Assembly: GCA_965221775.1 (NCBI GenBank)
Contig: CBDCSU010000005.1
Location: 64,001-128,000, forward strand
From: Candidatus Latescibacterota bacterium
GTDB lineage: Bacteria; Latescibacterota; UBA2968; UBA8231
Direction of reading: 5' to 3'
Length of the DNA: 64,000 nucleotides
A program made the position numbers and the translations under genes. The notes below the pieces were generated by a model. The model was given only the letters and a program-made list of their open reading frames with translations, did no database searches and had not been told where the DNA came from. Positions 58,282 to 60,011 of this stretch are shown piece after piece (positions within the stretch are counted from its first letter, which is position 1; every line of letters starts with the position of its first letter).

Positions 58282-59433
58282 CTACCCGTGCGGGAGGCGC
58301 GTCTCCATCTCGTCATAGGGCAGGTGGATGGCGTGGGCCGCTACCAACTCCCCGTAGGGGGCGACCGTGCGCCTCGCCACCTCGAGAGCCGTGTCCACGG
58401 CCCCTGTCTCTCCGCGGACGACGCAGGCGGTCAGGAAGTAGCCCGCCTTGTAGCGGCCCTCGTAGGCCACGTCGGCGTTCTTGAGCATCTCGTCGAGGGC
58501 CTTGACAAGGCCGGCGGTGGTGCGCGTCTCCACCAGGCCCAGGGCACGGCCGGCCAGGTTGCGCGCGCCGGGGGACTCCCCGGGCCGGGCGAAACAGCAC
58601 ACGACCTGCGGGTCGGGGCCGCTGATCACCACCTGCCCCTCCAGCTCCGCCGTCTCCCCGGCCCGGCGGGCGCCCTCGGCAACGGCGGCGCCGACCTCGT
58701 CCAGGGATCCGGAGGCGATCGCCGCCACGCGGCCCCCGCTGCCGATCGTCAGTCTCTCCAGGTCGACACGCCCTCCCTTCACCATGCCGTCGACGGCGGC
58801 CACCGAGCCCGCGTATCCCGTGGCCTCGACGATCCCGAGAGCGGCCGCGGTGGGCGTGTCGCCCGGGGGAATGGAGGGCAGCAGGACGCCCACTTCGGCC
58901 TCCGGTTGGGGCAGCACCAGGGCGGCGTGGAACTCCCCTGCTCTCCGGGACGCCTCTTCCCCGGCCTGCACGGCCGCCTCCACCGACCCCACCGAGCCGC
59001 TGACGGCGGCATGCACCAGGCCGCCGCCGATGAAGGCCCAGCCGTGGAGCTCGACGGCGCCGGCCTTGACCATGGCGTCGGCGCCGACGGCCAGGGGGAC
59101 GAGGCCCCGCGTCTCCAGGAGGCCGATGGCCTGGAGGCCGGGCCCGGGCTCGAGAGCGGCGCCGAGGTGCGGCATCGACTCGAGGGCGGCGGAGTCGGCC
59201 CCCGGTACGAGCGCCGCCGTGATCACCTCGCCGTGGGCGGCGGCCGCTTCCCGGCCCGCCTCGAGGGCGGTGCGGGCGTCGGCCGTGGCGCCTTCGACGA
59301 TCACGGTCAACCAGCCGGAGCCGATGCCGTGGTGTCCCGCCAGGCGCACGGAGGCCGCCTTGTGCATCGAGTCGACGGCGGCCGCCAGGGCCGTCATGCC
59401 CCTGACCTCCAGGATGCCCAGGGCGCTCTCCAT
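58282..59433 (-). CDS. BMC shell protein with four tandem BMC domains
   Basis: Four copies of the BMC signature: ALGILEVRG...DSMHKAA, AIGLLETRG...DAMVKAG, ALGIVEATG...DGMVKGG, ALGLVETRT...DEMLKNA; 383 aa; TGATG overlap. Confidence 0.88.
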   Translation of the reverse strand: MESALGILEVRGMTALAAAVDSMHKAASVRLAGHHGIGSGWLTVIVEGATADARTALEAGREAAAAHGEVITAALVPGADSAALESMPHLGAALEPGPGLQAIGLLETRGLVPLAVGADAMVKAGAVELHGWAFIGGGLVHAAVSGSVGSVEAAVQAGEEASRRAGEFHAALVLPQPEAEVGVLLPSIPPGDTPTAAALGIVEATGYAGSVAAVDGMVKGGRVDLERLTIGSGGRVAAIASGSLDEVGAAVAEGARRAGETAELEGQVVISGPDPQVVCCFARPGESPGARNLAGRALGLVETRTTAGLVKALDEMLKNADVAYEGRYKAGYFLTACVVRGETGAVDTALEVARRTVAPYGELVAAHAIHLPYDEMETRLPHG

Positions 59434-60011
59434 CAGCCTGCCCCGGCGGCCGGACGGAAGAGGAGGAAGGCCCGCAGCACCGACGGCAGGGGGCGGGGGA
59501 TCACCGCCGATGCCATGAACCACTCGCTGCCGCCCAGGCGCTCGCGGCCGCGGTCGATGGCCTGCTCGACGGCGTCCACGGCGCCGGTGATCAGGCTGCA
59601 GACGACGCGGTTGTGCACGGTGAGGACCTTGGCCACGGCCACGTCGGCGGCCTTCACCATGGCGTCGTTCACCTCCACGTGGACGCCGTACCCCCGCGTC
59701 TCGATCAGGCCCAGGGCGCCGGCCTCGGCCTCGCCCGAGGGAAGGGGGCAGCCGACGAAACCGGCACACTCGGGCTGAGGCTGATCGAGGCAGGCGCTGA
59801 CCACGTGGCCGGTGACGGCGCCTGCCGCCGCCTCGCCTTCGCGCAGGGCGGTGCCCACGTCGCCGAGGGGGCCGCGCAGGAAGAGGGTGGTGAACCCGCC
59901 GATCGACTCCCAGCCCATCAACTCGACCCGCGCCGCCTTGCAGGCCGCGTCAGCGGCGACGACGATCCCCGCGACTCCCTCGACCTCGATCATCCCCATG
60001 GCGTCGGACAC
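59433..60011 (-). CDS. BMC shell protein with two tandem BMC domains (BMC-T)
   Basis: AMGMIEVEG...ADAACKAA and ALGLIETRG...DAMVKAADV...VIPRP; GGAGG RBS. Confidence 0.9.
   Translation of the reverse strand: MSDAMGMIEVEGVAGIVVAADAACKAARVELMGWESIGGFTTLFLRGPLGDVGTALREGEAAAGAVTGHVVSACLDQPQPECAGFVGCPLPSGEAEAGALGLIETRGYGVHVEVNDAMVKAADVAVAKVLTVHNRVVCSLITGAVDAVEQAIDRGRERLGGSEWFMASAVIPRPLPSVLRAFLLFRPAAGAG

Follow-up and report, generated by a model that had tools for sequence, protein, structure and literature searches.

A co-inherited pair of four-domain and two-domain microcompartment shell genes in Latescibacterota: a probable 4+2 heterodimeric pseudohexamer

Introduction

How is a shell protein that carries four bacterial microcompartment (BMC) domains in one chain fitted into a facet whose tiles are rings of six domains? 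The question is raised by a stretch of 64,000 nucleotides from a Candidatus Latescibacterota bacterium (GenBank assembly GCA_965221775.1, contig CBDCSU010000005.1, positions 64,001 to 128,000 of the forward strand), referred to here as the window, in which a gene for a 4-domain shell protein directly follows a gene for a 2-domain shell protein. Four wedges per chain mean that a ring of six wedges cannot be closed in one plane by cyclic homo-oligomerisation. The reading favoured here, at a probability of roughly 0.6, is that the pair forms an obligate 4+2 heterodimeric pseudohexamer, the two chains combining 1:1 into one six-domain tile. The support for such a tile comes from comparative genomics and from modelling.

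In the passages available from PMC8217296 and PMC4207490, the facet tiles described are hexamers of BMC-H, with one domain per chain, and trimers of BMC-T, with two domains per chain, plus pentamers. The available text of PMC8217296 defines BMC-T^s as two non-permuted PF00936 domains per chain, and presents the BMC-T^dp proteins (CsoS1D, CcmP) as stacked double trimers of permuted domains for which special transport properties are presumed.

Results

Domain composition of the two shell proteins

The two genes and their domains are located in the window as follows.

59433..60011, minus strand: 2-domain BMC shell gene (P0002), 192 amino acids; GTG start, stop codon at 59433-59435
59730-60011, minus strand: domain d1 of the 2-domain gene
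59436-59729, minus strand: domain d2 of the 2-domain gene
59431..59435, minus strand: TGATG stop/start overlap of 1 nucleotide between the 2- and 4-domain genes, read from the sequence
58282..59433, minus strand: 4-domain BMC shell gene (P0001), 383 amino acids; ATG start at 59433, stop codon at 58282-58284
59146-59433, minus strand: domain D1 of the 4-domain gene
58855-59145, minus strand: domain D2 of the 4-domain gene
58555-58854, minus strand: domain D3 of the 4-domain gene
58285-58554, minus strand: domain D4 of the 4-domain gene

Comparison with Pfam revealed four PF00936 stretches in P0001 (E 9.7e-61, 202.1 bits against a cut-off of 24.5) and two in P0002 (E 2.3e-34, 117.6 bits against the same cut-off). 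The pairwise identity among D1, D2, D3, D4, d1 and d2 is 27-39%, and the four consecutive, divergent BMC domains that a first-pass annotation of the sequence had read in 58282..59433 were thus recovered, together with the two of its neighbour. The best PF00936 stretch of P0001 spans positions 1-75 of the 75 in the profile and both proteins are collinear with it, from which it follows that the domains are not circularly permuted; the order of secondary structure elements is identical in each of the six domains in AlphaFold2 (AF2) models of both chains. The linkers between domains are similar in length, at about 20 residues. The calculated masses are 38.3 kDa for the 4-domain protein and 19.6 kDa for the 2-domain protein, giving a sum of about 58 kDa. 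The upstream TGA (59435-59433) and the downstream ATG (59433-59431) have one base of the minus strand in common, at 59433, in agreement with the TGATG coupling described in the earlier annotation.

Placed among the known classes, P0001 with four PF00936 domains and P0002 with two both differ from BMC-H, which has one domain per chain. P0002 alone has the exactly two non-permuted domains of a BMC-T^s, P0001 having four, and neither protein has the circularly permuted PF00936 of BMC-T^dp or BMC-T^sp. Their membership of the BMC family is evident from PF00936 scores above the gathering score, from a locus with BMC-P and core enzymes, and from the edge motif. The best NCBIfam match of both P0001 and P0002 was the CcmO model, under its cut-off.

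Conservation of the four-domain frame and of its partner

A database search with the 4-domain protein returned 145 clusters at E <= 0.001 among 8000 candidates scored. Among the 120 of these clusters that were listed, 119 homologues are 369-402 amino acids long with at least 93% query coverage, the odd one being P0012 with 320 amino acids and 65% coverage. The records are annotated generically as 'BMC domain-containing protein', 'CcmO' or 'CcmL/EutN', and they point to metagenome-assembled genomes (MAGs) of Latescibacterota and Gemmatimonadota.

Taking one genome per species gave 73 loci, in which the domains of each open reading frame (ORF) were counted using a BMC-domain hidden Markov model (HMM) built from the sequences of these same loci, with start codons chosen by script. 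The 4-domain frame is intact in 68 of the 73 loci, at 379-394 amino acids, and is interrupted by contig ends in four others (L061, L069, L070 and L072). On one MAG contig (L056:3294-4428) the gene is split 3+1 into two frames, which may reflect a sequencing error or a frameshift. All 69 assessable loci have a 2-domain frame immediately upstream and on the same strand, and the order is never inverted. The gap between the two frames ranges from -13 to +30 nucleotides, with an overlap in 46 of the 69 loci (-8 in 34 loci, -1 in nine, -4 in two and -13 in one).

The co-occurrence of the two genes was examined in 168 genomes of the window's phylum, at E <= 1e-85 for the 4-domain gene and E <= 1e-40 for the 2-domain gene. 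The 4-domain gene was found in 83 genomes and the 2-domain orthologue in 84 (weakest listed E 4.8e-68); both genes are present in 83 genomes and neither in 84. The one genome with a 2-domain match alone (G096) is 85% complete and in 980 contigs, and the match lies in an open frame of 163 amino acids at the end of a short contig, leaving the co-occurrence pattern without a clean exception. The earlier annotation had held that 4-domain homologues usually lacking the 2-domain neighbour would speak against a shared tile; none was found among the 69 assessable loci, and all 83 genomes that carry the 4-domain gene carry its partner as well. Another genome (G097) has two 2-domain matches on different contigs, each adjoining a 4-domain match, which may represent a duplicated pair or a mixed bin.

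The surroundings of the pair were compared in the 53 loci with complete 10-kb flanks, referred to here as full loci. A gene of the dihydrodipicolinate synthase (DHDPS) family follows the pair in 50 of the 53. In 11 of the full loci (L011, L012, L014-L019, L021, L024 and L027) the pair and the DHDPS-family gene have no further BMC-domain ORF within 10 kb, and PduL, aldehyde dehydrogenase and BMC-P are likewise absent nearby; all 11 of these satellite loci contain the DHDPS-family gene. The DHDPS-family alignment starts a median of 15 nucleotides after the 4-domain stop codon, so that the N-terminal extension of the enzyme is also conserved. The 2-domain gene, the 4-domain gene and the DHDPS-family gene, at 57082-60011 on the minus strand of the window, are therefore a conserved module that moves jointly. 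The other companions are less constant: PduL, aldehyde dehydrogenase and the ORF directly upstream of the 2-domain gene (orf160) each accompany the pair in only 42 of the 53 full loci, and a separate BMC-T is present in 42.

Six domain lineages with intact edges

A tree was constructed from 591 BMC domains, comprising the six domains of each of the 69 loci and the other BMC-T and BMC-H domains of those loci. Each of D1, D2, D3, D4, d1 and d2 forms a clade of its own with all 69 members and support of 0.98-1.0, the longest stems being those of d1 (1.24) and d2 (1.01). The fragment of the split gene in L056 falls within the D4 clade. The branching among the six clades is poorly resolved and gives no order of duplication.

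BMC tiles are joined to their neighbours through a D-x-x-x-K edge motif. The retention of this motif in all six domains, as first read from the window, extends across the family: each of the six positions has D and K in 69 of 69 homologues, except for D215, where 68 have D and one has N. The pore loops are conserved position by position, for example at W41, W132, R235, K329/Y332, W34 and H133/R135, and differ in motif between domains, with G-S-G-W in D1, W...G-G-A-L in D2, S-G-G-R in D3, Y-K-V-G-Y in D4, W-x-S-I-G-G in d1 and T-V-H-N/D-R in d2. Six separately conserved lineages suggest, at the level of sequence, six fixed positions and not interchangeable fillers.

Predicted structures of the chains and of the complex

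The AF2 model of the 4-domain chain alone gave a predicted local distance difference test score (pLDDT) of 91.5 and a predicted template modelling score (pTM) of 0.90, and that of the 2-domain chain a pLDDT of 94.2 and a pTM of 0.91. The best match of both models in the PDB was 6ner ('Synthetic Haliangium ochraceum BMC shell'), with neighbouring domains superposed; target-normalised template modelling (TM) scores were 0.87-0.90 for the longer chain and 0.80-0.88 for the shorter. By sequence, too, 6ner is the best match (E 1.3e-34), and the identity is 38-41%. When natural BMC-T^s chains (PduT, Haliangium BMC-T1 and a Desulfitobacterium protein) were compared, both domains aligned, with TM scores of 0.38-0.46 and root-mean-square deviations of 15-17 Å. 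The consecutive domains in the models may run round the ring differently from the solved BMC-T^s, in the opposite sense, or the modelling may have chosen the other neighbour. A sequence search of the PDB found no chain with more than two BMC domains.

A 1:1 complex was modelled from the alignments of both proteins, 69 rows each, in three runs. The interaction prediction score from aligned errors (ipSAE) was 0.86, 0.85 and 0.85 (median 0.85), compared with 0.00 for the best of three controls, which were unrelated proteins and not other BMC proteins. The mark used for this score is reached by 58 of 80 solved complexes and by 2 of 110 mismatched pairs, a calibration that is rough for custom alignments. 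The three runs have at least 97% of contacts in common, with a partner pLDDT of at least 89. The modelled complex is a closed single-layer ring, tight at its centre, in which the domains follow one another as D1-D2-D3-D4-d1-d2. The confident contacts between the chains are those of D4 (304-361) with d1 (7-85) and of D1 (5-89) with d2 (107-137), and residue 136 of D2 contacts the second chain across the centre of the ring. The 1:1 asymmetric tile of six domains put forward in the first-pass annotation is thus supported by the comparative genomics and by a model in which the ring closes in the predicted way (ipSAE 0.85), although this outcome may reflect a likeness to solved BMC hexamers.

Rarity of four-domain chains and multi-domain relatives

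Nine BMC domains of this locus were combined into a general profile, which gave 9374 matches at E <= 0.001 among 1.84 billion representative proteins, of which the best 150 by summed score were examined, down to about 114 bits; the profile is biased towards this locus, and divergent multi-domain families could escape it. Four BMC stretches were found in one of these 150 (P0124, 387 amino acids, which reads D1-D2-D3-D4 by clade HMMs), three in 21, and five, six or any other number above four in none. Of the 21 with three, six belong to the 4-domain family as fragments or frameshifted copies (P0130, P0132, P0135, P0136, P0137 and P0163). The short representatives P0150, P0175, P0178 and P0184 also classify as parts of the 4-domain family, with ends that look cut, and so carry no weight for or against a natural split into separate D1D2 and D3D4 genes.

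Fourteen of the 21 look like complete three-domain proteins of 283-330 amino acids, which by clade HMMs are not pieces of the 4-domain family and seem to come from several unrelated families (P0125-P0129, P0131, P0133, P0134, P0140, P0145, P0151, P0152, P0158 and P0172), and P0211 is a fragment of a three-domain protein. Two three-domain chains could form a 3+3 pseudohexamer. A search of the window's phylum with P0125 found no three-domain protein, the five matches being read-throughs of adjacent BMC genes or the 4-domain gene.

Three- or four-domain BMC shell proteins were described nowhere in the results of full-text literature searches, outside which lie the supplementary locus tables of PMC8217296, where these genes may be listed, and the available passages of PMC8217296, PMC4207490 and PMC11585597 contain no mention of one.

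Organization of the surrounding operon

The pair belongs to a BMC operon on the minus strand that extends beyond the end of the window. In order of transcription it encodes a LytB/IspH-like protein, three BMC-P, a BMC-T of 185 amino acids, a BMC-H of 88 amino acids, an aldehyde dehydrogenase, an ORF of 393 amino acids, a fourth BMC-P, PduL, orf160, the 2-domain and 4-domain proteins, the DHDPS-family protein and a DAO-family protein. The first three BMC-P, the BMC-T, at L001:1689-2246, and the BMC-H are in L001, just outside the window.

L001:2243-3089, minus strand, beyond the window end: three further BMC-P genes (triplet)
62973..64000 and past the window end, minus strand: acylating aldehyde dehydrogenase (BMC core enzyme); PF00171, NF011927 with 627.6 bits against a cut-off of 403
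61740-62921, minus strand: ORF of 393 amino acids between the aldehyde dehydrogenase and the fourth BMC-P, without a Pfam family
61246..61575, minus strand: BMC-P vertex protein, fourth of the locus; PF03319, E 8.8e-22
60502..61239, minus strand: PduL-type phosphotransacylase (BMC core enzyme); PF06130, E 6.1e-65
60016..60498, minus strand: Cys-rich ORF of 160 amino acids (orf160), directly upstream of the 2-domain gene
57082..58269, minus strand: DHDPS-family (class I pyruvate aldolase/lyase-like) gene; PF00701, E 2.1e-60
55963..57063, minus strand: FAD-dependent oxidoreductase (DAO family, ThiO-like); PF01266, E 7.1e-64

A 'BMC-P triplet' is given in the available part of PMC8217296 as a trait of several uncharacterised BMC types. 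The 393-residue ORF has a counterpart in none of the 53 related full loci; it may be spurious, or may have been inserted into the operon in this lineage only. The gaps upstream of the 2-domain gene are 3-4 nucleotides, and those downstream of the 4-domain gene are 12 and 18 nucleotides, the DHDPS-family gene beginning 12 nucleotides past it.

The PF00701 domain of the DHDPS-family protein begins at residue 74 and is preceded by an N-terminal extension of about 70 amino acids. The orf160 product gave no Pfam or NCBIfam match; a homologue lies upstream of the pair in 42 of the full loci, and its C-terminus resembles, in sequence, an amphipathic helix that may be an encapsulation peptide. The first 55 or so residues of orf160 are weakly similar, at 26% identity and an E of 0.056, to this extension of the DHDPS-family protein, and as a lead only, the two could have a targeting domain in common (58060-58269 in the DHDPS-family gene).

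In most loci the enzyme set consists of the ThiO-like FAD oxidoreductase (present in 42 of the 53 full loci), the DHDPS-family lyase, the acylating aldehyde dehydrogenase and PduL. As a guess, this set would fit a route from an amino compound through a 2-oxo acid to pyruvate and an aldehyde, and from the aldehyde to an acyl-CoA. It is put no higher because the specific NCBIfam matches of two of the enzymes are under their cut-offs: the oxidoreductase scored 191 bits against 250.8 for TIGR02352, and every match of the DHDPS-family protein was below threshold. The genome of the window contains two more single BMC-domain matches on other contigs, which are satellite shell genes (G000:C4:411161-411388 and G000:C6:791900-792127).

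Discussion

A 4+2 arrangement is the most economical reading of these results because a ring of 4-domain chains alone cannot close, the 2-domain partner is never absent, always upstream and in many loci overlapping, the six domain lineages keep their edges intact, and the modelled complex closes. In this arrangement the 4-domain chain would provide four consecutive wedges of a six-wedge ring, D1-D2-D3-D4, and the 2-domain chain would supply the other two, with d1 beside D4 and d2 beside D1, so that the ring would resemble a circular chain of six domains cut at two places. With the order of the genes fixed and their stop and start codons overlapping or adjoining, joint production in similar amounts would be favoured, and the two chains would bind 1:1 in the cell. 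Because all six outer edges retain D-x-x-x-K, the heterodimer would be expected to enter shells and to fit into a facet as a BMC-H hexamer or a BMC-T trimer does. Each wedge would differ from the other five, leaving neither 6-fold nor 3-fold symmetry; the tile would have a single pore, to which every domain contributes its own conserved loop, and its inner and outer faces would each be unique. What might pass or dock is hinted at by the near-constant association with a DHDPS-family enzyme whose N-terminal extension is conserved: each tile could be one conduit, specific for a substrate or product of that enzyme, or could have one site at which it docks, and the likely partner would be this enzyme, almost always encoded directly downstream.

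Hexagonal tiles made from more than one gene product occur in nature, the CcmK3/CcmK4 hexamers of beta-carboxysomes being mixed from single-domain subunits in variable ratios. The tile proposed here would differ in that the 4+2 composition is fixed by covalent linkage and there are six distinct positions. The BMC-T^s proteins (PduT, CcmO and Haliangium BMC-T1) are also alike in having non-permuted PF00936 domains fused in one chain, a pseudohexagon of six domains and D-x-x-x-K edges. One difference is that a chain of four domains cannot use their 3-fold symmetry; the proposed ring consists of two unlike chains (4+2) while theirs consists of three alike, and the consecutive domains of the predicted structures superpose poorly on the solved chains. 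The fusion of neighbouring BMC-H-like domains head to tail within the ring is shared with 6ner, which is however engineered from two identical domains as a symmetric trimer, whereas the present chains are natural and have four and two different domains. The BMC-T^dp proteins (CsoS1D, CcmP) are similarly multi-domain shell proteins of unusual architecture, but as far as the available text describes them they are permuted with two domains per chain, while the domains here are collinear with PF00936 and modelled as a single-layer ring.

Several observations weigh against a common ring. The genomes counted are kin, and the co-occurrence counts overstate their independence; co-inheritance is a sign of functional dependence, which need not mean one ring. 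The whole operon is tightly packed (gaps of 3-18 nucleotides), so that the close spacing of the 2- and 4-domain genes in this window is not special and is weak evidence, the special feature being its conservation across loci. BMC hexamers and trimers are plentiful in the PDB (57 sequence matches) and the score of the complex model may be a memory of them; the other BMC-T of the locus, or two BMC-H, might score equally with the 4-domain chain. Covariation between the chains at the modelled contacts was not above background (Mann-Whitney p 0.23), in a test with an effective number of sequences (Neff) of 22 in which, of the 25 contact pairs listed, no more than 9 showed variation; interface pairs numbered 4 among the top 50 covarying pairs against 1.1 expected, and 4 among the top 200 against 4.2 expected. 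A fused six-domain chain, which would have given 'Rosetta stone' support, was found neither among the 120 listed homologues (210-671 amino acids) nor, as weak evidence, at 672-2000 amino acids.

If the two proteins instead assembled separately, the 2-domain protein would form a BMC-T-like homotrimer and the 4-domain protein an oligomer of its own, for example three chains making two stacked or linked rings, and they would be co-inherited because the shell needs both and not because they occupy one common ring. Three 4-domain chains do amount to twelve domains, or two rings; the solved tandem BMC proteins are trimers according to their PDB titles (PduT, for example, is 'a trimeric bacterial microcompartment protein'), linkers of like length mean that sequence alone favours no single arrangement, and the covariation lent the hetero-interface no support. 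Such a division is nevertheless unlikely. The locus already contains another BMC-T in 42 of 53 cases, and the co-occurrence (83/84 against 0/84) and the adjacency in fixed order (69/69) exceed the usual linkage of genes with a shared function, as the more frequent absence of orf160, PduL and the aldehyde dehydrogenase illustrates. The single-chain model of the 4-domain protein is confident, its D1 and D4 are bridged in the complex model by exactly two domains in one plane, and the domains are non-permuted, unlike the stacked BMC-T^dp class in the passages of PMC8217296. It is distinctly improbable that the 4-domain chain closes its ring with other partners, such as two BMC-H or another BMC-T, or that it lends two domains to each of two adjacent tiles and so stitches them together, the gaps being filled by the 2-domain protein in combinations that vary. 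The main locus does encode a BMC-H and a second BMC-T, all BMC domains have the same fold and edges, which makes mixed rings geometrically possible, and CcmK3/CcmK4 is a natural precedent. Against this stand the 11 of 53 loci that lack any BMC-H or other BMC-T within 10 kb while the 2-domain gene is never absent, the six fixed and separately conserved domain lineages, and the convergence of three model runs on one closed ring. Both of these explanations are disfavoured because the co-inheritance is so strict, and the alternatives named in the first-pass annotation, one 4-mer with two BMC-H subunits or three 4-mers as a double ring, fail to account for the strict co-inheritance of the 2-domain gene.

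An artefactual origin of the 4-domain gene, whether from two BMC-T genes fused by misassembly or a frameshift or as a chance open frame in GC-rich DNA, can practically be discounted. The window is GC-rich and long ORFs lie on both strands here (58288..59778 on the plus strand, for example), and one locus, L056, has the gene split. However, apart from that locus and the four cut by contig ends all 73 loci are intact, 119 of the 120 listed homologues are full length, and Pfam finds all four domains on the minus strand; the assembly fusion that the earlier annotation had listed for checking is ruled out by these counts.

Whether the obligate, symmetry-broken 4+2 heterodimer should be regarded as a fourth kind of facet tile beside BMC-H (6x1) and BMC-T (3x2), with one pore and a docking face dedicated to the DHDPS-family enzyme, is at present evenly balanced; together with 3+3 dimers, it would mean that most of the possible divisions of six domains are used.

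If the 4+2 reading is true, a natural tile built from a 4-domain and a 2-domain chain would be a new rule of shell building, and would show that a tile can lose its internal symmetry completely in the course of evolution. Each hexagon would then have a single pore geometry and present every surface once. This is the aim that engineers pursue with synthetic fusions such as 6ner, and it would allow cargo to be attached at a single site, or a channel that is truly asymmetric. Within its lineage the family is no rarity, being present in 83 of the 168 genomes of the phylum. The pair is tied to an uncharacterised metabolosome with a DHDPS-family partner, and may thereby provide a handle on the substrate of this organelle.

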